64,000 nt of DNA from Elusimicrobiota bacterium (GTDB taxonomy: Bacteria; Elusimicrobiota; Elusimicrobia; F11): contig JBJXGI010000099.1 of NCBI GenBank assembly GCA_046153645.1, positions 14,781 to 78,780 of the forward strand. The letters run 5' to 3'. Under the pieces are notes generated by a model that was not told the origin of the DNA, did no database searches, and was given only the letters and a program-made list of their open reading frames with translations. Below are positions 7,857 to 34,008 of this stretch, piece after piece. Each line of letters opens with the position of its first letter. Within the stretch, counting starts at the first letter, position 1. A program made the translations under genes and the position numbers.

Positions 7857-8785
7857 TGAGGATTTTGGTTACCGGAGGAGCCGGGTTTATTGGCTCTCAT
7901 GTTGTTGATGCCTATATAAATGCCGGTCATAAAGTCATTATTGTCGATGATGGTTCAACCGGAAATTTTAAACAGATAAATAAAAAGGCCATTTTTTATA
8001 ATTGCGATATTAGAAATAAAGCTAAGTTGGCTCAGCTTTTTAGTAAATATAAATTTAATGTCGTAAATCATCACGCCGCACAAATTGATGTTCGAAAGTC
8101 AGTTCTGAACCCTCTCCATGATGCTGACATTAATATTATTGGTTTGTTAAATTTGTTAGATGTGGCCGTTAAAAATAAAGTTGAAAAATTTATTTTTTCT
8201 TCATCTGGTGGAACCATTTATGGTGAAACTCCAAAACCCGCGTTAGAAACCTCTCCAGAAATACCATTGTCTCCTTATGGTGTTGCAAAGTTGTCGAGCG
8301 AAAAATACATTCAGGCTTTTTCAGCGCTCTTTAATATCAAATACACTATTTTTAGATATTCCAATGTTTATGGTCCTAGGCAAAACCCACATGGTGAAGC
8401 TGGAGTTGTGGCTATTTTCTCTAGCAGATTATTAAAAAACGAACCTCTTAAAATTTTCGGTTCTGGAAATCAGACCAGAGATTTTGTTTATGTTGGCGAT
8501 GTTGCTCGGGCGAATCTTCTAGCGCTGAGAAAAGGAAATAATCAAATCATTAATATTGGAATTGGGAAGAAGGTGAGTGTAAATGAGCTGTTTAATTTAA
8601 TGGCAGAGATTATTGGCTATCAACAAAAACCAGTTCATGCGAAAGCTCGGTTAGGCGAATTGCAAGATAGCGTTTTAAATTATAATAAGGCTAAGCGTGT
8701 GTTGGGGTGGAAACCTAAATATCAGATCAAAGAAGGGTTAGCTGAAACAATTCTTTTTTTTGAAAACATGCCGATAAAAAAATGA
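7856..8785 (+). CDS. NAD-dependent epimerase/dehydratase (UDP-sugar 4-epimerase-like, SDR extended family)
   Basis: Rossmann motif MRILVTGGAGFIGSHV and the catalytic region YSNVYGPRQ. Confidence 0.8.
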   Translation: MRILVTGGAGFIGSHVVDAYINAGHKVIIVDDGSTGNFKQINKKAIFYNCDIRNKAKLAQLFSKYKFNVVNHHAAQIDVRKSVLNPLHDADINIIGLLNLLDVAVKNKVEKFIFSSSGGTIYGETPKPALETSPEIPLSPYGVAKLSSEKYIQAFSALFNIKYTIFRYSNVYGPRQNPHGEAGVVAIFSSRLLKNEPLKIFGSGNQTRDFVYVGDVARANLLALRKGNNQIINIGIGKKVSVNELFNLMAEIIGYQQKPVHAKARLGELQDSVLNYNKAKRVLGWKPKYQIKEGLAETILFFENMPIKK

Positions 8786-9708
8786 ATGCCATTATTTTGT
8801 TGGGTGGTCTTGGAACTCGCTTACGTCCGTTAACTATCTTAAAGCCCAAAGCGTTGCTTCCTATATTAAATAAGCCTTTTTTATCTTATCAGTTTGATTT
8901 GTTGCGCCGATCAGGAATTAAAAATGTTGTTTTAGCGGCTGGGATGGCTAATTTGCCTTTTAAAAAAGAATTTCTTGCTCTTGGGGGAAGAGGACTTAAC
9001 GTTAAAATTTGTTTTGAACCATTTCCTTTAGGGACGGGGGGGGCCATTAAATTTGGATATGAGCAATTATTGAAATATTTTCCGCCATCGGCAGTCCCCG
9101 TTTTCGTAATGAATGGAGATGTTTTTATTAATTTAGATATCAAATCTTTTTTTAAAAAACATTTATTAAATAAAGCGGTCGTCTCAATTGCATTAACAAA
9201 AGTAAAGGATCCATCTCAATTTGGTGTCATCATTTTAAACAGAAACTCGCGAATTATGAAATTTGTCGAAAAACCCAAAAAATATGTGGGAGATAAAATT
9301 AATGCTGGCGCCTATATGATGTCATCAGAATGGCTAAATGGAATTCGTTCCAATACGGTTTTATCTGTCGAGAAAGATTTGTTCCCATTAACACTTAAAG
9401 AAGAAAAACCGATGTTCGGTTTTCAAATCAATGGGTATTGGAATGATATTGGAACCCACACCACATATTTAAAAGCGCATCGTGATTTGTCAAATGGTAA
9501 AAGTTTTATGGGGAAAGGTTCTCATGTTCATTCTACGGCAACTCTGGAAAACTCTGTCTTGTTCGAAAATGTGTTAATTGGAAAAGAGACGGTTATTCGA
9601 AACTCGATCATTGCTTCTGGAGTCGAAATTAGTAATAACTGTTGTATCGAGAACGCGGTGTTGGCTGAAAAAACAAAAATTATGTCTTACTCTAAAGTGA
9701 TTGGATAA
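8782..9708 (+). CDS. Sugar-1-phosphate nucleotidyltransferase (mannose-1-P guanylyltransferase-like) with C-terminal left-handed beta-helix
   Basis: ILLGGLGTRLRPLT is the NTP-transferase G-x-G-T-R motif. Hexapeptide repeats at the C-terminus. Confidence 0.7.
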   Translation: MNAIILLGGLGTRLRPLTILKPKALLPILNKPFLSYQFDLLRRSGIKNVVLAAGMANLPFKKEFLALGGRGLNVKICFEPFPLGTGGAIKFGYEQLLKYFPPSAVPVFVMNGDVFINLDIKSFFKKHLLNKAVVSIALTKVKDPSQFGVIILNRNSRIMKFVEKPKKYVGDKINAGAYMMSSEWLNGIRSNTVLSVEKDLFPLTLKEEKPMFGFQINGYWNDIGTHTTYLKAHRDLSNGKSFMGKGSHVHSTATLENSVLFENVLIGKETVIRNSIIASGVEISNNCCIENAVLAEKTKIMSYSKVIG

Positions 9709-9710
9709 TT

Positions 9711-11162
9711 ATGAATGCAAAAATTAAGTTTGGAACTGACGGATGGCGTGATGTTATCGCCGATGGGTTTACTTTTGGGAATTTAAAGAATGTTGTTCAG
9801 GCCACCTGCCAATATTTAAAAAAGACCTCAAAATCAAAATATGTTTTGATCGGTTACGATAATCGGTTTTATTCCGATCAATTCGCGAGAATCGCGGCCC
9901 AAGTTTTTTTAGCGAACTCATTTAAAGTTGAGTTATCGGATGCTGCTGTCAGTTCTCCTGTCATGTCATGGAATACAAAAAATAAAAAGGCAGCCTTGGG
10001 TGTTATGATCACCGCTAGTCATAACCCGGCGATTTTTAATGGATATAAACTAAAAGGGTCTCATGGTGGATCTGTCGATGAAAAAACAACGCTCCAAATT
10101 GAGGACTTATTAGATTTGCCTTTAAACTGGGATGAATCCATCGTTCCGAAAACCACCGATTTTGTTGAAAGTTATATAGGCCAATTAAAAAAATGGGTTG
10201 ACCCCAAAAAACTTAAAGGTTTAAAAGGAAAAATTGTTTTTGATTCTATGCATGGTCCTGGTGGAGAAATATTTAAGGAATGCGTTGGAAGTTCTTTTGA
10301 TGTTTCTTACCTTCATAATAATAGAGACCCTCTTTTTGGTGGAATAAATCCTGAACCCATTGAGGAAAACCTTCTTCCTTTAAAAGCTGAAATGAAAACA
10401 AAATCAGCTGTTATTGGAATCGCTGTAGATGGAGACGCTGATCGTATTGGTGTTATTGATGAAAAAGGCCGCTATTTACCGCCACATACTGTTATGCCAC
10501 TTTTACTCTGTCATTTGGTTAAGAATAAAAAAATGAAAGGGAAAGTTATCCAAACTGTTTCGATGGGATATATTAATCAGCGTATTTGTCAAAAATATGG
10601 TCTGGCCTTTGAAGAAGTACCGGTTGGATTTAAAAACATCGTTCAAAAAATGTTAATTGAAAAAGTGTTATGGGGAGGAGAAGAATCTGGTGGATACGGC
10701 GTTGGCCTTTGGACACCGGAGCGCGATGGTTTAATGTGCGCGCTTCTACTGATTGAGATGCTGGTTATGGAGAAAAAACCTTTATCTCAAATCGTTGATG
10801 AAATGAGTTCTCAATTTGGATCTTCCCATTTTAAAAGAGTTGATTTTCATTTAAAAGAGTCAGTGAATAAAGCGGATTGGACAGTTTTTATTCAATCTCA
10901 ATTAAAGCCTGAAATTTCTGGGCAAAAAATAAAATCTGTGAATAGTTCTGATGGAATAAAAATTATAACGGAAAATGATTCTTGGGTTCTTATGCGCCCG
11001 AGTGGAACTGAACCGCTCATTCGAACTTATTCTGAATCGGATTCAATGGCCACCGTTGATGCTTTATTGAATGAGGCCAAACGACTTGTTTCAATTCAAT
11101 ATCCTCCCAAGAAAATAGAATCAAAATCGGGAACAAGAAAAAGTCGAAAGCCGAAAGAATAA
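9711..11162 (+). CDS. Phosphomannomutase/phosphoglucomutase (alpha-D-phosphohexomutase)
   Basis: Active-site TASHNP motif and the metal-binding region AVDGDADR. Confidence 0.85.
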   Translation: MNAKIKFGTDGWRDVIADGFTFGNLKNVVQATCQYLKKTSKSKYVLIGYDNRFYSDQFARIAAQVFLANSFKVELSDAAVSSPVMSWNTKNKKAALGVMITASHNPAIFNGYKLKGSHGGSVDEKTTLQIEDLLDLPLNWDESIVPKTTDFVESYIGQLKKWVDPKKLKGLKGKIVFDSMHGPGGEIFKECVGSSFDVSYLHNNRDPLFGGINPEPIEENLLPLKAEMKTKSAVIGIAVDGDADRIGVIDEKGRYLPPHTVMPLLLCHLVKNKKMKGKVIQTVSMGYINQRICQKYGLAFEEVPVGFKNIVQKMLIEKVLWGGEESGGYGVGLWTPERDGLMCALLLIEMLVMEKKPLSQIVDEMSSQFGSSHFKRVDFHLKESVNKADWTVFIQSQLKPEISGQKIKSVNSSDGIKIITENDSWVLMRPSGTEPLIRTYSESDSMATVDALLNEAKRLVSIQYPPKKIESKSGTRKSRKPKE

Positions 11163-27344: not shown

Positions 27345-27367
27345 CAGGGTAACAAACAAAGGTTTTT

Positions 27368-27450
27368 GCGCGGGTGGTGAAACTGGCAGACACGCCATCT
27401 TGAGGTGGTGGTGCCCAAAAGGCATGCAGGTTCAAGTCCTGTCCCGCGCA
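27368..27450 (+). tRNA. tRNA-Leu (anticodon GAG), long variable arm, no encoded CCA
   Basis: Manual fold: acceptor GCGCGGG/CCCGCGC, 3-bp D stem, anticodon stem CCATC/GGTGG, loop TTGAGGT, variable arm TGCCCAAAAGGCAT, T arm GCAGG-TTCAAGT-CCTGT. Confidence 0.8.
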
Positions 27451-27472
27451 GTTTTTTTACATAGTAAAAAAA

Positions 27473-27545
27473 CCTTCTAATTGCTCATACTATTTTCTTT
27501 CCATTTTAAAATTAGCATGAGCATGAGAAAATAGTATATAGAAGG
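27473..27545. repeat. AT-rich imperfect palindromic repeat element, copy A (…CTTCTAATTGCTCATACTATTTTCT…AGAAAATAGTAT…)
   Basis: Shares the AATTAGCATGAG(A)AAATAG core with copies at 31417, 31741 and 32215. Lies between tRNA-Leu and tRNA-Gly. Confidence 0.6.
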
Positions 27546-27560
27546 CGGCTTCGCCGCATT

Positions 27561-27634
27561 GCGGGTGTGGTTCAATGGTAGAATGGCTCGTTGCCAACGA
27601 GCAGACGAGGGTTCAATTCCCTTCACCCGCTCCA
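27561..27634 (+). tRNA. tRNA-Gly (anticodon GCC), CCA encoded
   Basis: Acceptor GCGGGTG/CACCCGC, anticodon stem GCTCG/CGAGC, loop TTGCCAA, T arm GAGGG-TTCAATT-CCCTT, 3' TCCA. Confidence 0.9.
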
Positions 27635-27675
27635 CCCTTCTTAAAATAAAAGTTGTTTTTCACTTCTGTAAAAAC

Positions 27676-28593
27676 ATGAACCAATATACGTTAAAAGAAA
27701 AAATTCAAAAGCTTAAAATAGAGCGAAATGCCGTTATTATTGCTCATAACTATGAACTTCCTGAAGTTCAAGATGTGGCTGATTTTGTTGGAGACTCTTT
27801 AGGATTGTCTCAAAAAGCAGCAGCAACCGATGCGGACGTCATTGTTTTTTGCGGAGTTCATTTTATGGCTGAAACAGCTGCCATTCTTGCCCCGCAAAAA
27901 AAAGTTCTTATTCCGGATTTAGGGGCGGGGTGTTCTTTAGCGGCAACAATCACAGCTGACGATTTAAGGAGATGGAAAGCAGAGCATCCTGGCGCAGTGG
28001 TTGTTACTTATGTTAACTCGACGGCGGAAGTTAAAGCTGAATCTGATTACTGTTGTACCTCATCTAATGCGGTAAAGGTTGTAGAGTCTATTTCTCCTGA
28101 AAAAGAAATTTTATTTGCGCCAGATATGTTTTTAGGGCAGTGGGTCAGAATGAAAACGGGTCGAACCGTTCATTTATGGCCAGGTTCTTGTCATGTTCAT
28201 CATCGAATTAAAACCGATGATATTAAGGCGTTGAAAGTTGAACACCCAAAAGCGGAGTTTGTGATGCATCCTGAATGCGGGTGTATGTCAACTTGTTTAC
28301 CTTTGGCTGATAAAGTTTTATCGACCGAAGGAATGGTGCGTTATGCAAAAGAAAGCCCAGCCAAAGAAATGATTGTTGCCACAGAAAATGGAATTTTACA
28401 TCGAATGAAAAAAGAAAACCCTGAAAAAATATTTTATCCATCAACTGAAACAGCTGTTTGCGAATTTATGAAAATGATTACTCTTGAAAAAGTATTGTGG
28501 TCACTTGAAGATTTAAAATATCAGGTCTCTGTTCCTGCCGATATTGCTAAAAAAGCAAAAGTGGCCATCGATCGAATGGTTTCAATTACTTGA
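27676..28593 (+). CDS. nadA: Quinolinate synthase A
   Basis: NAVIIAHNY…FCGVHFMAET…VTYVNS…MHPECGC. The track start at 27559 overlaps tRNA-Gly, so the real start is ATG 27676. Confidence 0.9.
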   Translation: MNQYTLKEKIQKLKIERNAVIIAHNYELPEVQDVADFVGDSLGLSQKAAATDADVIVFCGVHFMAETAAILAPQKKVLIPDLGAGCSLAATITADDLRRWKAEHPGAVVVTYVNSTAEVKAESDYCCTSSNAVKVVESISPEKEILFAPDMFLGQWVRMKTGRTVHLWPGSCHVHHRIKTDDIKALKVEHPKAEFVMHPECGCMSTCLPLADKVLSTEGMVRYAKESPAKEMIVATENGILHRMKKENPEKIFYPSTETAVCEFMKMITLEKVLWSLEDLKYQVSVPADIAKKAKVAIDRMVSIT

Positions 28594-28985
28594 GTTATAT
28601 GGGAACTAAACTAAAATACTTTACATTAAAAGAGGCAGAGAAGTTAATTCCAACTCTCCAGGCGGGCTTTGAAAAAATTCAAGAAATCAGGCTTAAAATT
28701 GAAGAGAAAGTTGAATATTGGAGAAAAGTTCATAAAAAAATGACAGATGTCGATGAAACTCTTTTTCGAAGCCAAGTTGATTTTTTAGTAACTCAGCTAG
28801 ATTCAGAACTTGGAAAAATTGCCGATTTAGGCTGTGTTCCAAAAGATCTTGAGTCAGGGTTGGTTGATTTCCCCGCGAGGATCGATGGAAAAGAAGGTTA
28901 CTTTTGCTGGAAAATTGGTGAGACAACAATTGCTTATTGGCATAATTTAACTGAAGGCTTTTCAGGACGAAGACTCATAAGTTAG
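28590..28985 (+). CDS. Hypothetical protein, DUF2203-like
   Basis: A C-terminal VDFPARIDGKEGYFCWKIGETTIAYWH…GFSGRR block resembles DUF2203. There is no catalytic inference. Confidence 0.35.
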   Translation: MSYMGTKLKYFTLKEAEKLIPTLQAGFEKIQEIRLKIEEKVEYWRKVHKKMTDVDETLFRSQVDFLVTQLDSELGKIADLGCVPKDLESGLVDFPARIDGKEGYFCWKIGETTIAYWHNLTEGFSGRRLIS

Positions 28986-29001
28986 TTAGGAGCATAGATC
29001 G

Positions 29002-29592
29002 ATGAAAAAAATGCAAGAAGCAGAGAAATTAACAGGAAAAGTTGGCGCATTAGCAGAAAATATTGAAGATATTTTACACTTGATTGGAGAGGATAAAACT
29101 CGAGAAGGTTTGGTTAAAACTCCGGGTCGAGTGGCCAAATCGTTATTAGATTTAACGACAGGGTATTCGGTTGATGTCGATGCTCTTATTAATAGAGCCA
29201 TTTTCGACGAAAACTATAATGAAATGGTTGTTGTTAAAGATATTCGATTTTATTCTCTTTGCGAACATCATATGCTGCCTTTTTTTGGGACTGCAGCTGT
29301 TGCCTATATTCCGAATGGAAAAATTATTGGTCTTTCTAAAATTCCTAAGTTGGTAGATGTTTTTTCCAAGCGTTTACAAGTTCAAGAGCGCTTAACTCAA
29401 CAAATTGCCAATACGCTTCAGGAAAAATTAAAACCCTTGGGTGTGGGAGTTGTTATGAAAGCGCGTCATTTGTGCATGGAAATGCGTGGTGCAGAGAGCA
29501 TGGATTCTCCCACGATTACAAGCGCCATGCTGGGAGCTTTTAGAAATAGATCTCAAACCCGAGATGAATTTTTATCCATCATTCATAGTTGA
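29002..29592 (+). CDS. folE: GTP cyclohydrolase I
   Basis: [13 protein letters not shown]…[21 protein letters not shown]. Confidence 0.95.
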
Positions 29593-29599
29593 ATAACTG

Positions 29600-30253
29600 A
29601 TGAGTAGTTTAAAATTTAAAGCAATTATTTTTGATTTAGATGGAACACTGATTGACTCTAGAAGTGATTTAGCCGCCGCCGTCAACTATTCGCTTGAGAG
29701 TTTAGGTAAAAGGAAAAAAAAAGAACAAGATATTATTCCGAACGTTGGAAATGGTCTTGAAAAACTTTTAACAGATGTTTTTGGAAAGATCAGTGTCTCT
29801 GAACTGTCAAAAGCCATTTCATTCTTTAATGAATATTATGCGCATCATTGTCTTGATAAAACAAAGCTTTATGATGGGGTTTTTGAATTTATTAGTGAGA
29901 ATAAGTCCGAAATTGTTTTTTCAGTTGTTACTAATAAGCCTTTTTATTTTTCTGAGAAGATCTTGGGTCATTTTTTCCCCGAAGGTGATTTTCCTGTGAT
30001 AGTGGGGGGAGATTCCACTCCGTATAAAAAACCCTATCCAGAGCCGGTATTGCACGCTCTTCGGTCTCTTAATTTAAGCAATCAAGATGTTTTGATGATT
30101 GGAGACGGAGAGCAAGATATTTTAGCGGCCAAAGCAGCGGGTGTTAAGATTGGATTGGTTACTTATGGGTTTGGTTTTAAAAAAGAAATGCTTACAATGA
30201 ACCCTGATTTTGTTTTTACAAATTTAGCTGAAGTAAAGGAGATATTGACATGA
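29600..30253 (+). CDS. HAD-superfamily hydrolase (phosphoglycolate phosphatase-like)
   Basis: HAD motif I IIFDLDGTLIDS, motif III K…, motif IV GDGEQD. Confidence 0.8.
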   Translation: MSSLKFKAIIFDLDGTLIDSRSDLAAAVNYSLESLGKRKKKEQDIIPNVGNGLEKLLTDVFGKISVSELSKAISFFNEYYAHHCLDKTKLYDGVFEFISENKSEIVFSVVTNKPFYFSEKILGHFFPEGDFPVIVGGDSTPYKKPYPEPVLHALRSLNLSNQDVLMIGDGEQDILAAKAAGVKIGLVTYGFGFKKEMLTMNPDFVFTNLAEVKEILT

Positions 30254-31410
30254 CTGTTGCGCCATTAACAAATGAGGAAATCCTTCGATATTCTCGTCAC
30301 TTAATTCTTCCTGAAGTAGGAAAAGCTGGTCAAGAAAAATTAAAGGCATCGAAAATTTTATTAATTGGATCGGGTGGACTTGGTTCTCCCAATGCTTTGT
30401 ACCTTGCTGCCGCAGGAATCGGTACGATCGGTATTATTGATTTTGATGTGGTGGATCACACCAATTTACAACGTCAGTTATTATTTGGCTCTGATTCTGT
30501 CGGAATTCCAAAAGTAGAGGCCGCTAAAAAAAGAATTCAAGAAATCAACCCCAATACAATTGTAAATGCCTACAACGAAAAATTGTCGAGTGAAAATTCG
30601 ATGAAGCTATTTAAAGACTACGACTTAATTATTGATGGAACTGATAATTTTCCGACTCGCTATCTCACCAATGATACTTGTGTGTTCCTCAATAAGCCTA
30701 ATATTTATGGAAGCATTTTTAGATTCGAAGGCCAGGCCACCGTATTTGCGCCAAAAGAAGGCCCTTGTTACCGGTGCTTGTATCCAGAGCCACCGCCACC
30801 CGGAGAAGTTCCTTCTTGTGCGGAAGGTGGTGTTTTGGGCATTCTCCCTGGTTTGGTTGGAATGATTCAAGCATCTGAAGCTGTTAAATGGATTTTAGGA
30901 AAGGGAACCTCATTGGTAGGAAGGCTTCTCCAAATCAGTGTTCTTGATATGAGTTTTAGAGAAGTGAAAATTAGAAGAGACCCCACTTGCCCTGTTTGTG
31001 GAGATAACCCTACCATTAAAGAATTAATTGATTATGAACAATTCTGTGGTATTGGACTGGGCATGGAAGCTCCTGAAGCCAATACCGATGGCGTCCAGGA
31101 AATAACGGTTGAGGAACTTAAAAATCTTTATGCTAAAAATGGAAAAGCTCTCAATATTATCGATGTGAGAGAACCCTATGAGTATGAAATTTCTAAATTA
31201 CCAGGGACTCAATTAATTCCACTTGGAACGTTGATGGATCACGTTAATGAACTTGATTCAAGTAAAGAATACATCATTCACTGCCGATCAGGAGCCAGAT
31301 CTGCCAAAGCCATTCAGCAACTTCAGAAGTTAGGTTTCAAAAAACTCAAAAATCTGAAGGGTGGAATTAACGCTTACGCAGATATAGATTCTTCGATAGC
31401 GAAATATTAG
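30250..31410 (+). CDS. ThiF/MoeB-type E1-like adenylyltransferase with C-terminal rhodanese domain (MoeZ-like)
   Basis: LLIGSGGLGSP nucleotide loop, CxxC…CPVC zinc motif, C-terminal rhodanese with catalytic HCRSGARS. Confidence 0.85.
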   Translation: MTVAPLTNEEILRYSRHLILPEVGKAGQEKLKASKILLIGSGGLGSPNALYLAAAGIGTIGIIDFDVVDHTNLQRQLLFGSDSVGIPKVEAAKKRIQEINPNTIVNAYNEKLSSENSMKLFKDYDLIIDGTDNFPTRYLTNDTCVFLNKPNIYGSIFRFEGQATVFAPKEGPCYRCLYPEPPPPGEVPSCAEGGVLGILPGLVGMIQASEAVKWILGKGTSLVGRLLQISVLDMSFREVKIRRDPTCPVCGDNPTIKELIDYEQFCGIGLGMEAPEANTDGVQEITVEELKNLYAKNGKALNIIDVREPYEYEISKLPGTQLIPLGTLMDHVNELDSSKEYIIHCRSGARSAKAIQQLQKLGFKKLKNLKGGINAYADIDSSIAKY

Positions 31411-31416
31411 AATGCC

Positions 31417-31492
31417 ACTTCTAATTTCTATTTTCTCATGCTAATTCCATAACCAAAAATAGCATGGGAAATTAGACAATAGAAGTTAGAAG
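31417..31492. repeat. AT-rich palindromic repeat element, copy B
   Basis: Left arm CTTCTAATTTCTATTTTCTCATGCTAATTCC. The right arm is its imperfect reverse complement (…GCATGGGAAATTAGACAATAGAAGTTAGAAG). Immediately upstream of tRNA-Cys. Confidence 0.6.
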
Positions 31493-31516
31493 AAAAATTT
31501 TGAGAGACAAATTTTT

Positions 31517-31593
31517 GGTGCGGTACCCAAGTGGCCTAAGGGGAGAGTCTGCAAAACTCTTATTCGTCGGTTCGACTCCGACCCGCACCTCCA
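31517..31593 (+). tRNA. tRNA-Cys (anticodon GCA), CCA encoded
   Basis: Acceptor GGTGCGG/CCGCACC, anticodon stem AGAGT/ACTCT, loop CTGCAAA, T arm GTCGG-TTCGACT-CCGAC. Confidence 0.85.
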
Positions 31594-31661
31594 TTTAAAA
31601 TTTAAAAATGTTAGTATTCGTCGTTCTTGGAATTTTTTTTGTGAATTAACAAATCCAATAA

Positions 31662-31735
31662 GCGCGGTTAGCTCAGTTGGTTAGAGTACTTCCTTGACAT
31701 GGAAGGGGTCAGAGGTTCGAATCCTCTACCGCGCA
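31662..31735 (+). tRNA. tRNA-Val (anticodon GAC), no encoded CCA
   Basis: Acceptor GCGCGGT/ACCGCGC, anticodon stem CTTCC/GGAAG, loop TTGACAT, T arm AGAGG-TTCGAAT-CCTCT. Confidence 0.9.
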
Positions 31736-31740
31736 GTTAC

Positions 31741-31818
31741 TAATTCTAATTTCCATTTTCTATTATCTAATTTCCCATTTTTTTGAAATTAGCATGAGAT
31801 AATAGAAATTAGAAATAA
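31741..31818. repeat. AT-rich palindromic repeat element, copy C
   Basis: TAATTCTAATTTCCATTTTCTATTATCTAATTTC … GAAATTAGCATGAGATAATAGAAATTAGAA. Starts 6 nt after tRNA-Val and lies upstream of the four-helix-bundle gene. Confidence 0.6.
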
Positions 31819-31848
31819 CCCCTCGTCTAATTAACTTATGGAGGGGAT

Positions 31849-32208
31849 ATGTCTTTTGCATTTGAAAATCTTGATGTTTATCAGCGGGCTCTCAAATTAA
31901 ATGGAAGCATAGAAGGTCTTTGTCGATCATTAAAAGGTGTGGTAGCTTACCCTTATTTGGATCAGTTAACGCGGGCAGTTTTGTCAATCCCATTAAATAT
32001 TGCAGAAGGGAATGGCCGTTGGCATGTCAAAGAAAAGAGACAGTTTTTTTGGATAGCGCGAGGATCAACGTTTGAAATTGTGCCAATTTTCCAAATTTTT
32101 TATCAAAAAGGATACATAACTCAGGAATCCTATAACAGTTATTATCAGGAAGCTGAAGTAATATCAAAAATGTTAACAGCTCTTATAAAAGCTGTAGAAA
32201 AAATCTGA
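31849..32208 (+). CDS. Four-helix-bundle protein of the 23S rRNA intervening-sequence protein family
   Basis: 119 aa. DVYQRALKL…IPLNIAEGNGR…FWIARGSTFEI matches the family whose genes sit inside 23S rRNA IVS in several lineages. GGAGGGG RBS. Confidence 0.75.
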   Translation: MSFAFENLDVYQRALKLNGSIEGLCRSLKGVVAYPYLDQLTRAVLSIPLNIAEGNGRWHVKEKRQFFWIARGSTFEIVPIFQIFYQKGYITQESYNSYYQEAEVISKMLTALIKAVEKI

Positions 32209-32214
32209 TAAAAA

Positions 32215-32250
32215 CTGAAATTAGCATGAGAAAATAGAAATTAGATTATT
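32215..32250. repeat. Half-copy (single arm) of the palindromic repeat, copy D
   Basis: CTGAAATTAGCATGAGAAAATAGAAATTAGATTATT, ending immediately before the thrS ATG. Confidence 0.55.
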
Positions 32251-34008
32251 ATGTCCACCCAAATAGAAAATAAAGAAGAATACCTTTACAAACTCCGACA
32301 TTCTGCTGCTCATGTGTTAGCTGAGGCGGTGAAAGATTTATTCCCTGAAACAAAACTGACCATTGGCCCGCCCACTGAAGATGGTTTTTATTATGATTTT
32401 GATAGTCCACATCGATTTACTATTGATGATTTAGCGGTTATTGAAAATAAGATGAACGAAAATCTTAAAACGGTTCATCCCTTTGAAGGTTCAGAAATTT
32501 CTCGCGCGGATGCGATTAAATACTTTGAACAAAAATCTGAAAAATTTAAAGTTGAAATTATTAACGACCTTCCTCCAGAAACCAAAATTACTTTACATAA
32601 ACATGGAAAATTTACGGACCTTTGTAAGGGCAATCATTTAGATTCCACTGCAGATATTAAGTATTTCAAGCTCTTAAAAGTGGCTGGTGCTTATTGGCGA
32701 GGAGATGAAAAACGTGAACAACTCCAGCGCGTGTATGGGACCATTTGGACATCAAAAGAAGAATTAGATTCTTATCTCACCCAATTAGAAGAAGCCAAAA
32801 AACGCGATCACCGTGAATTGGGGCCCAAACTAGGTTTATTTACCATCGAACATGACGAAGTGGGAAGTGGACTTGTGTTGTGGCTTCCAAAAGGAGCTTT
32901 GATTCGCCATTTCATTGAAGATTATTTAAAGAAGTTACATTTAGAAAATGGTTATCAGTTTGCCATATCGCCGCATGTGGGATTATCAAAACTTTGGGAA
33001 ACCAGCGGGCATTTGGATTTTTATAAAGAAAATATGTTTCCTGAAATGAAATTGGAAAACCAATCGTTTTATTGCAAACCCATGACTTGCCCTTTTCATA
33101 TTTCCATTTATAAAACCACGTTGCATAGTTATAGAGAGCTTCCTATTCGAATGTACGAACATGGAACCGTTTACCGGTTTGAGCGCAGTGGAGTGCTTCA
33201 CGGCACTTTACGCGTGAGAGGTTTCACTCAAGACGATACTCATATTTTCTGTCGCCAAGATCAATTAGAAGATGAAATTAAAAACGTGATGCTGCTGGCT
33301 AAAAAAATATTAAGTGATTTTGGATTTTTTGATTATGAAATTAAACTCTCAACGCGTCCCAAAGAGTTTGTGGGGGATCCCGCTCGCTGGGAATTGGCCG
33401 AAAAAGTTTTAGCTGACGCGCTTCATAATGCTGGTTTCAAATATGAAGTAGATCCTGGACAAGGTGCTTTTTATGGTCCTAAAATTGATTTGAAAATTAA
33501 AGATTCCATTGGTCGGCGGTGGCAATGTTCGACTGTGCAGGTTGATTTTAATTTGCCGGATCGATTTAAAGCGACTTATCGAAATGATGAGGGCAAAGAT
33601 ACGCCTGTGTTTATGGTTCACCGCGCTATTCTGGGATCTATTGAACGCTTTTTTGGAATTTTAGTGGAACATTTTTCTGGCGCTTTTCCACCTTGGTTGG
33701 CACCTGTTCAGGCGGTGGTTCTCCCTATTTCTGATAAACAAATTCCTTATGCTGAAAAGATTGTAAAAGAACTTAAAGAAAGTGGTTTTAGGGCTGAATT
33801 AAGAGCTGAAAATGAAAAAGTAGGGGCCAAAATTCGAACAGCCACTCTGGAAAAAATTCCTTATATGTTAGTTGTAGGGGCTAAAGAAGAGGCCGTTGGT
33901 TCTGTCTCGGTGAGGTCTCGCACGGGTAAAGATCACGGAGTGCTTTCTTTGGCTCAATTTATTTCGCAATTACAAGCTGAAATTGTTGAGAAGAAACAAG
34001 TATCCTGA
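32251..34008 (+). CDS. thrS: Threonyl-tRNA synthetase (no N-terminal TGS domain)
   Basis: Editing-domain HSAAHVLA, class II motifs [26 protein letters not shown]-like (…[27 protein letters not shown]), C-terminal anticodon-binding domain. Confidence 0.95.
   Translation: [585 protein letters not shown]

Follow-up and report, generated by a model that had tools for sequence, protein, structure and literature searches.

Within a 64,000-nucleotide (nt) stretch of a metagenome-assembled genome (MAG) of an Elusimicrobiota bacterium (contig JBJXGI010000099.1, positions 14,781 to 78,780; hereafter the window), four copies of an AT-rich repeat, designated elements A–D, are found beside tRNA genes and on either side of a gene for a 119-amino-acid (119-aa) four-helix-bundle (4HB) protein of family PF05635. 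We favor, at roughly even confidence, the explanation that these repeats are the stem-forming arms of an insertion cassette around the PF05635 gene, that this cassette is of the type of the intervening sequences (IVSs) of 23S rRNA, and that it is transcribed with its host genes. The complete cassette would consist of element C, the open reading frame (ORF) and element D, about 505 bp between tRNA-Val and thrS, with elements A and B as gene-less derivatives of it in the neighboring tRNA spacers.

Repeat arms bracket a PF05635 gene between tRNA-Val and thrS

Element C (31741..31817, plus strand) is a full palindrome that starts ~6 nt past tRNA-Val(GAC) (31662-31735, plus strand). Its pyrimidine-rich arm (31741-31780), in which the dinucleotide TC occurs five times at a strict 7-nt period (31745-31774), is followed by a purine-rich arm (31781-31817). 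The intact 119-aa gene lies downstream (31849..32208, plus strand), and element D (32216..32245, plus strand), a lone purine-rich arm that closes the cassette on its 3′ side, stops 5 nt short of the ATG of thrS (32251..34008, plus strand), the host gene directly downstream. The right arm of C and D are 97% identical and stand as direct repeats on both sides of the 4HB gene. Comparison within the window identified the gene-less palindrome B (31417..31492, minus strand), which ends 24 nt ahead of tRNA-Cys(GCA) (31517-31593, plus strand), as C in the opposite orientation; 76-nt inverted copies thus bracket tRNA-Cys and tRNA-Val. The left arm of B (31417-31452) is 97% complementary to D and 91% complementary to the right arm of C, and the right arm of C, D and the reverse complement of the B left arm are mutually 91–97% identical. 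These purine arms are heptamer-built and read GAAATTA-GCATGA-GAAAATA-GAAATTA-GA. The gene-less palindrome A (27474..27544, no strand given) occupies the tRNA-Leu/tRNA-Gly spacer, is the most divergent copy and carries a CATGAG duplication.

An earlier note on this DNA had counted four copies within 5 kb, three full palindromes and one half-copy, and had placed them relative to tRNA-Leu/tRNA-Gly, tRNA-Cys, tRNA-Val and the thrS ATG; both the count and the placement hold. The 12-mer AATTAGCATGAG occurs exactly four times in the 64 kb (27510+, 31435−, 31787+ and 32219+) where 0.59 occurrences are expected, and none of 100 shuffles reached four. An nhmmer profile of the elements detected no extra copy anywhere in the window, the other 59 kb being empty, and scanning genome contigs for AATTAGCATGAGANAATAG returned five single matches, all in unrelated organisms and in line with chance. 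A, B and C form long hairpins that no shuffle equals (z = −4.6, −6.1 and −3.9, respectively); D does not fold alone (z = 0.01). The same note had seen a CACTTCTR motif recurring at element edges; we count seven occurrences against 2.9 expected, a number reached by 2 of 100 shuffles and judged not significant, and only one of them, at 31416, lies at an element edge.

The identity of the gene flanked by C and D, likewise proposed earlier, holds as well. The 119-aa ORF scores 88 bits with PF05635 (E = 6e-25; cut-off, 33.8 bits) and 86 bits with TIGR02436, and its AlphaFold model displays four long helices with a predicted local distance difference test score of 96.6. Foldseek aligned the model to 2GSC (Xcc0516) and 2RLD (BT_0352), with template modeling (TM) scores of 0.89 and 0.83, respectively; both entries contain five chains each. 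The model also resembles Avd, a factor of diversity-generating retroelements (DGRs), at a TM score of about 0.75 and ~10% sequence identity. A reverse transcriptase, template or variable repeat was not found beside the 4HB gene, whose immediate neighbors are tRNA-Val, thrS and moeB/ThiF; for the reverse transcriptase, this negative covers these neighbors only. PADLOC defense-system models gave no match.

Predicted pairing between the arms extends across genes. The B left arm pairs with D (30 nt, 97% complementary) at −38.5 kcal/mol and with the C right arm at −36.3 kcal/mol, as compared to −30.5 kcal/mol for its local duplex with the B right arm; the C left arm pairs with D (17 nt, 94% complementary) at −22.8 kcal/mol and locally with the C right arm at −20.4 kcal/mol. 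Long-range pairing is thus predicted to be no less stable than local pairing, and stems could form around the 4HB gene only, around the pair of tRNAs, or around gene and tRNAs together, a design shared by rRNA processing stems and the Coxiella IVS. The cross-gene inverted-repeat score in the window is 38, against 24 at the 99th percentile of controls. Consensus promoters or terminators, including intrinsic terminators with a GC-rich stem and a T run, were not detected on the repeat arms, and their counts across the region are at the shuffle level.

A model for the cassette can be proposed. Presumably lacking a promoter of its own, the cassette would be transcribed as part of the host tRNA-Cys/tRNA-Val/thrS unit; this reliance on host transcription is suggested by arms free of consensus promoters and terminators, and by the absence, between tRNA-Val and C, of the small hairpin that follows the tRNA in many homologous loci (H1, described below). 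The arms would pair in the RNA, either locally, as in B and C, or over a long range, with the C left arm and D closing around the gene and the B left arm and D closing around both tRNAs and the gene, to yield AU-rich duplexes of 17–30 bp. Such duplexes would loop the insert out and could be cut by a double-stranded RNA nuclease such as RNase III, as occurs in rRNA intervening sequences, and such cuts would separate tRNA precursors, 4HB mRNA and thrS mRNA from one another, which would reduce the damage done to the host genes. The purine arm that precedes each ORF (the C right arm for the 4HB gene, D for thrS) might double as a translation-initiation region. By this analysis, RNase III-type processing or simple looping-out is most likely the role of the arms.

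Related genomes carry empty sites

Three moderately distant relatives (L097, L093 and L095), located via ThrS homologs at 72–75% identity, preserve the neighborhood without the insert. The gene order of L097 is that of the window, except for a DUF2203 gene (28590-28985 in the window) missing between nadA and folE, which directly adjoin in L097. At the syntenic locus, moeB is followed by tRNA-Cys, 11 nt, tRNA-Val, 131 nt and thrS, and the palindromes and the 4HB gene are both absent. The tRNA-Val-to-thrS distance is thus 131 nt in L097 and 515 nt in the window, and the tRNA-Leu/tRNA-Gly spacer, which harbors A in the window, is 17 nt in L097 against 109 nt. In L093 and L095, tRNA-Val precedes thrS by 14 nt and 73 nt, respectively, the tRNA-Val of L093 being identical in sequence to that of the window. 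The 4HB gene has no match in any of the three genomes.

Because three relatives possess the tRNA/thrS neighborhood without them, the elements and the 4HB gene are most simply lineage-specific insertions. The direct succession of tRNA-Val and thrS would be the older arrangement and A, B, and C with the ORF and D would be gains of the window lineage, which is the most parsimonious reading of these gene orders. The suggestion that an IVS-like cassette landed in this locus is thereby strengthened: a PF05635 ORF lies between complementary arms at a junction that is empty in three relatives. The position of D in the window corresponds to the site of the GGAGGGGG ribosome-binding site in L097. In that genome, GGAGGGGG lies 10–17 nt ahead of the thrS start (L097 9985-10003); window positions 32209-32253 contain no recognizable Shine-Dalgarno sequence for thrS and hold arm D in that place. 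The tRNA-Cys/tRNA-Val spacer also differs in length, as it comprises 68 nt in the window (31594-31661) that are AT-rich, non-palindromic and unrelated to A–D.

Palindromes accompany the gene beside tRNAs

Homologous loci, here numbered with the prefix L, were selected by similarity to the 119-aa protein, and several lie on short contigs. The nearest 4HB homologs, 55–63% identical, come from MAGs labeled Deltaproteobacteria and from unassigned metagenomes, and carry a heptamer-periodic palindrome just 5′ of the start codon that is similar in sequence to the window elements. The palindromes of L006, L008, L013, L099, L100, L105 and L106 have in common TTTCnATTTTCnATTATCTAnTTTC in one arm, with GCATTAG/GAAAATA units in the opposite arm. 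A profile derived from the window matches the homologs’ palindromes at E = 0.005–0.03, and the pyrimidine arm is conserved across phyla at least as well as the protein.

The association with tRNAs is equally consistent. ARAGORN detected 17 tRNAs in 82 homologous loci (425 kb), 16 of which are at most 383 nt from the 4HB gene. Every locus that contributed one of the 17 encodes a protein at least 41% identical to that of the window, and the remaining loci (at most 42% identity) contributed none. Rfam confirmed these tRNAs in the 20 loci scanned. Four additional close homologs, looked up independently, all adjoin a tRNA (4/4), as does L106. When independent loci of this subfamily are counted, about 19 of 29 have the cassette at most 400 nt from a tRNA 3′ end. 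The adjoining tRNAs are of the types Val, Arg, His, Pro, Gln, Met, Ala, Glu, Tyr and SeC, with Glu twice following a Lys-Glu pair, and cassette-type 4HB genes stand beside at least 11 tRNA types across phyla. The order is invariable: the tRNA 3′ end, usually the small A/T-flanked hairpin H1, the periodic palindrome, and the 4HB gene in either orientation. Downstream of a tRNA-Arg, L106 possesses tandem cassettes (8725-10369), the second of which is preceded by a duplicated tRNA 3′ fragment (gggcgcgca) and the same hairpin. A GyrI-like gene overlaps, at its start, the stop codon of the first of these two 4HB genes.

These data bear on a different view of the repeats, namely, that they are an independent family of miniature inverted-repeat transposable elements (MITEs) or repetitive extragenic palindromes (REPs), or plain terminators or processing hairpins of tRNA operons, with the 4HB gene as a chance neighbor. 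Two of the four copies, A and B, are gene-less, all copies are intergenic and tRNA-adjacent, and the hairpins are stable; like REPs, bacterial interspersed mosaic elements and MITEs, A and B are short, imperfect, non-coding intergenic palindromes found in either orientation. Such families differ from the window copies, which number only four within 5 kb with no further copy in the window, and which show no RAYT, transposase or target-site duplications. The elements are, moreover, tied to a specific protein gene across phyla, with similar palindromes accompanying homologous 4HB genes in unrelated organisms, while the arms have no GC stem followed by a T run and the relatives have the same tRNAs without the elements. 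We thus judge this view very unlikely, and the mobile MITE-like family that the earlier note had entertained finds little support.

Two features of individual loci may be recorded here. In L006 (5866-5991), L013 (4857-4990) and L106 (8800-8925), one half of H1 recurs within the palindrome loop, so that two mutually exclusive folds are possible, one of which would free a purine arm with an AGAGG ribosome-binding site. These alternative folds resemble an attenuator, an arrangement that element C of the window does not have. In L036 (1199-2822), tRNA-Ile and tRNA-Ala, which typically occur together in rRNA spacers, stand on either side of a 4HB gene with period-7 arms; this 6.5-kb contig yielded no rRNA.

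Bracketing arms with a TC/GA period define a wider family

Among the more distant family members (at most 42% identity), inverted arms are mostly 27–37 nt long, 85–95% complementary and about 390–420 nt apart, which gives a cassette of about the size of the Coxiella IVS. Inverted repeats exceed the 95th percentile of controls at 16 of 24 close loci and 46 of 52 distant loci, as compared to 15 of 207 control sites; for inverted repeats that span the gene, the counts are 42 of 52 distant loci and 5 of 207 control sites. The arms abut both neighboring genes in at least 9 of 33 loci, with 0–8 nt between the upstream stop codon and the first arm and −1 to +6 nt between the second arm and the downstream start codon. 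Arms abutting stop and start codons in this way occur at several different operon junctions, including gap|pgk and nuoF|nuoG-like pairs, both labeled from sequence motifs alone. The same geometry is present in the window, where 7 nt separate the moeB stop from B and 5 nt separate D from the thrS start. Between orthologous gap|pgk cassettes, whose flanking proteins are 76–92% identical, a 24-bp stem is kept with two compensatory pairs. The sequences thus point to an apparently undescribed, widespread class of cassettes beside tRNAs and between operon genes.

The breadth of this family renders it scarcely credible that the repeats are a functionless local duplication. All copies in the window do lie within 5 kb and three of their arms are 91–97% identical, as a duplication would have it, but this architecture is shared by more than 70 independent loci, far in excess of controls, and the stems are maintained between orthologs; the duplication was already disfavored on these grounds.

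Also to be weighed is whether the arms act as DNA, that is, as recombination or insertion sites in the form of cruciform or hairpin substrates or subterminal repeats, with A and B as landing pads or footprints. Such a role would suit elements that are present in the window and absent from relatives, the near-identical direct repeats (C right arm and D) that flank the gene, and cassette-type genes next to so many types of tRNA. The tandem in L106, with its duplicated tRNA 3′ fragment and hairpin, has the pattern of insertion at a tRNA 3′ end, and L017 diverges from L016 upstream of the left arm. A recombinase or transposase is nevertheless found neither in nor beside the cassette, no relatives were found in the viral contigs searched, target-site duplications are not evident at A–D, and flanking direct repeats are at control level across 33 related cassettes. 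The persistence of orthologous cassettes over 76–92% flanking-protein identity indicates stable inheritance, not frequent movement. Resemblance to integron attC sites was not seen, as there is no integrase among the neighbors and the element ends are without GTTRRRY. On balance, we regard a DNA-level role as quite unlikely.

Arm periodicity and possible recognition by the 4HB protein

Arms of every class are strictly periodic, with TC recurring in one arm and GA in its partner every 6, 7 or 8 nt. Strict-period TC/GA chains (n ≥ 5) were observed in 46 of 81 loci and in none of 193 control windows. The period goes with the protein clade, the units being GAAARTA for period 7, GARCANTA for period 8 and GAKYAC for period 6, with variable bases in between. 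Arms contain about six units at period 6, five at period 7 and four at period 8, at a constant arm length of ~26–32 nt; the clade of the window typically has five units per arm. A match between five units and a protein pentamer was considered and rejected as a rule: it is true for the period-7 clade and not in general, given that the arm length is constant and the unit number is not. RNAalifold applied to the palindromes of the window clade recovered only a 9-bp core, as the periodic arms align in several registers; this core reflects sequence conservation and is not usable as covariation evidence. In the period-6 class (L039-L092), the 4HB frame often reads through the downstream GA array, with the stop codon 6–78 nt inside or beyond it, which predicts Asp/Glu-X dipeptide tails; these could be functional tails or merely stop-free repeats. 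In L071 (1965-2334), group II intron domains occur ~2.7 kb upstream of the 4HB cassette and are probably unrelated to it.

The periodicity raises the possibility that the arms are protein-binding arrays, in which the 4HB protein would bind the periodic GA (or UC) units of its own arms, with competition between pairing and binding providing autoregulation and control of the neighboring gene. Several observations are in keeping with this possibility: GA/TC is invariant at a strict period while spacer positions vary, unit sequences differ between protein clades, arms of the window clade typically have five units, the fold matches 2GSC and 2RLD (five chains each) and the RNA-binding Avd of the DGR ribonucleoprotein, and the pyrimidine arm matches or exceeds the protein in cross-phylum conservation. 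TRAP and HutP are ring proteins that bind spaced triplets, a short invariant motif at fixed spacing by a regulated ORF. Like their targets, the arms combine a fixed-spacing motif with variable spacers; this comparison concerns a possible mode of action. The protein folds differ, the array in the window has a complementary partner arm, and binding is hypothetical here. Unit number, furthermore, is not fixed at five and falls with rising period, some arrays have 10–29 units, and the solo elements A and B stand without a protein gene beside them. Constant arm length with a varying unit number fits a constraint on stem length better than a model of one unit per subunit. We therefore hold binding to be unlikely as the primary function of the arms, although recognition by the Avd-like protein may be the main rival, or a complement, to pairing.

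Returning to the arms as RNA stems of an IVS-type cassette, several points weigh against this preferred explanation. The strict conservation of TC/GA amid variable positions is not explained by a stem requirement alone. Members of the tRNA-linked subfamily usually have the two arms together on the same side of the gene, which in convergent loci is sometimes the 3′ side, and the gene is then not enclosed as in an rRNA IVS. The terminator-like H1 between tRNA and palindrome in many homologous loci argues against read-through from the tRNA there. A means of mobility is likewise missing, no transposase, integrase or target duplications having been found. The preference for gain over loss is a parsimony argument from three relatives at 72–75% ThrS identity, and the copy number applies to the 64 kb of the MAG that were searched. 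Transcription of the insert with its host genes, pairing of the arms in the cell and cutting by RNase III are steps that we infer.

Relation to known systems

The closest known counterparts of the cassette are the 23S rRNA IVSs of Leptospira and Coxiella burnetii (S23p; PMC4990558), with which it shares the PF05635 protein, a similar size (about 430–500 nt), and an ORF between complementary termini that form a stem of ~20–30 bp (PMC4990558). The Coxiella IVS is 428–444 nt long and its 28-bp stem is cut by RNase III (PMC4990558). Both the IVSs and the cassette are located inside a stable-RNA transcription unit and have no recognizable mobility gene. In contrast to the IVSs, the cassette of the window lies between tRNA-Val and thrS with no rRNA in the window by Rfam, its upstream side is a complete palindrome instead of a single arm, gene-less copies occur nearby, and its arms are made of 7-nt units with invariant TC/GA; excision by RNase III would, in this case, be by analogy. 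The cassette thus fails the defining location of an rRNA IVS and shares with it the protein family and the bracketing arms. The premise that the family is otherwise encoded inside 23S rRNA does not survive, as Rfam found rRNA in none of the 37 homologous loci scanned, so that most members in our sample are free-standing.

The only settings described for PF05635 ORFs in the literature searched are 23S rRNA IVSs, insertion sequences of 16S/23S rRNA, Avd in DGRs, and unexplained ‘four helix bundle’ genes. One of the last, on plasmid pNsp_c of Nostoc sp. ATCC 53789 (NZ_CP046706.1 96451-96828; locus L108, 96400-96900), is a RefSeq-annotated ‘four helix bundle protein’ (TIGR02436) gene between co-directional genes. 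Its upstream arm is (GGGAAAA)n and its downstream arm the inverted (CCCTTTT)n, both of them periodic and unannotated in the record. Its product is 34% identical to that of the window and its arms enclose the gene; unlike the window cassette, it has no tRNA neighbor. Avd (PDB 4DWL, 8UB7), whose fold is like that of the window protein, acts in a ribonucleoprotein complex. Rfam 15 models returned only tRNAs above the gathering score in the window, the palindromes giving sub-threshold noise from microRNA hairpins. Cassettes at tRNA flanks or between cistrons, or periodic TC/GA arms, found no description in the literature searched, with most subscription journals outside it. In a large survey of clustered regularly interspaced short palindromic repeats (CRISPR), ‘23S rRNA IVP’ is named in a figure-legend list of protein-domain abbreviations (PMC10910872); if the domain is CRISPR-array-linked in that part of the survey, repeated arms may, speculatively, have been picked up as arrays.

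What the ORF of rRNA intervening sequences does, and where these inserts came from, have been standing questions since the 1990s (PMC4990558). The loci sampled here show the same gene family and design of bracketing arms outside rRNA, in the 3′ flanks of tRNA genes and at exact stop/start junctions of operons. A broader and doubtful generalization, offered tentatively, is that PF05635 genes with TC/GA-periodic arms constitute widespread, apparently undescribed ‘fold-out’ inserts whose arms are recognized as RNA by a pentameric, Avd-like protein. If true, such inserts would inhabit host transcription units, that is, rRNA helices, tRNA 3′ flanks and exact stop-to-start gaps; the protein would control whether the insert is looped out, cleaved or translated; and the classical 23S rRNA IVS would be merely the best-known special case. 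Annotation labels these inserts only ‘four helix bundle protein’ and leaves the repeats unannotated. What is gained is a testable anatomy of defined arms, defined repeat units, and naturally filled and empty sites.

Other features of the locus

The genes of the region are, in order, pgk, secG, tRNA-Leu, tRNA-Gly, nadA, DUF2203, folE, HAD, moeB/ThiF, tRNA-Cys, tRNA-Val, the 119-aa ORF and thrS, with tRNA-Leu(GAG) at 27367-27451 and tRNA-Gly(GCC) at 27561-27634; tRNA-Cys and tRNA-Val, which B and C bracket, are also present in L097. Between element C and the 4HB gene, a hairpin of the form CCCCTC...GAGGGG (31819..31846, plus strand) is predicted, which would sequester the Shine-Dalgarno sequence of the 4HB gene. 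A short GC hairpin with a 5-bp stem, GCGGCTTCGCCGC, separates element A from tRNA-Gly (27545..27557) and is, on the minus strand, the sole consensus terminator match in the inserts. On the other side of A, directly 3′ of tRNA-Leu, a small A/T hairpin, TTTTTTTAC-ATA-GTAAAAAAA, is predicted to fold (27452..27472, plus strand); it is the counterpart of the post-tRNA hairpin H1 of the homologous cassettes.

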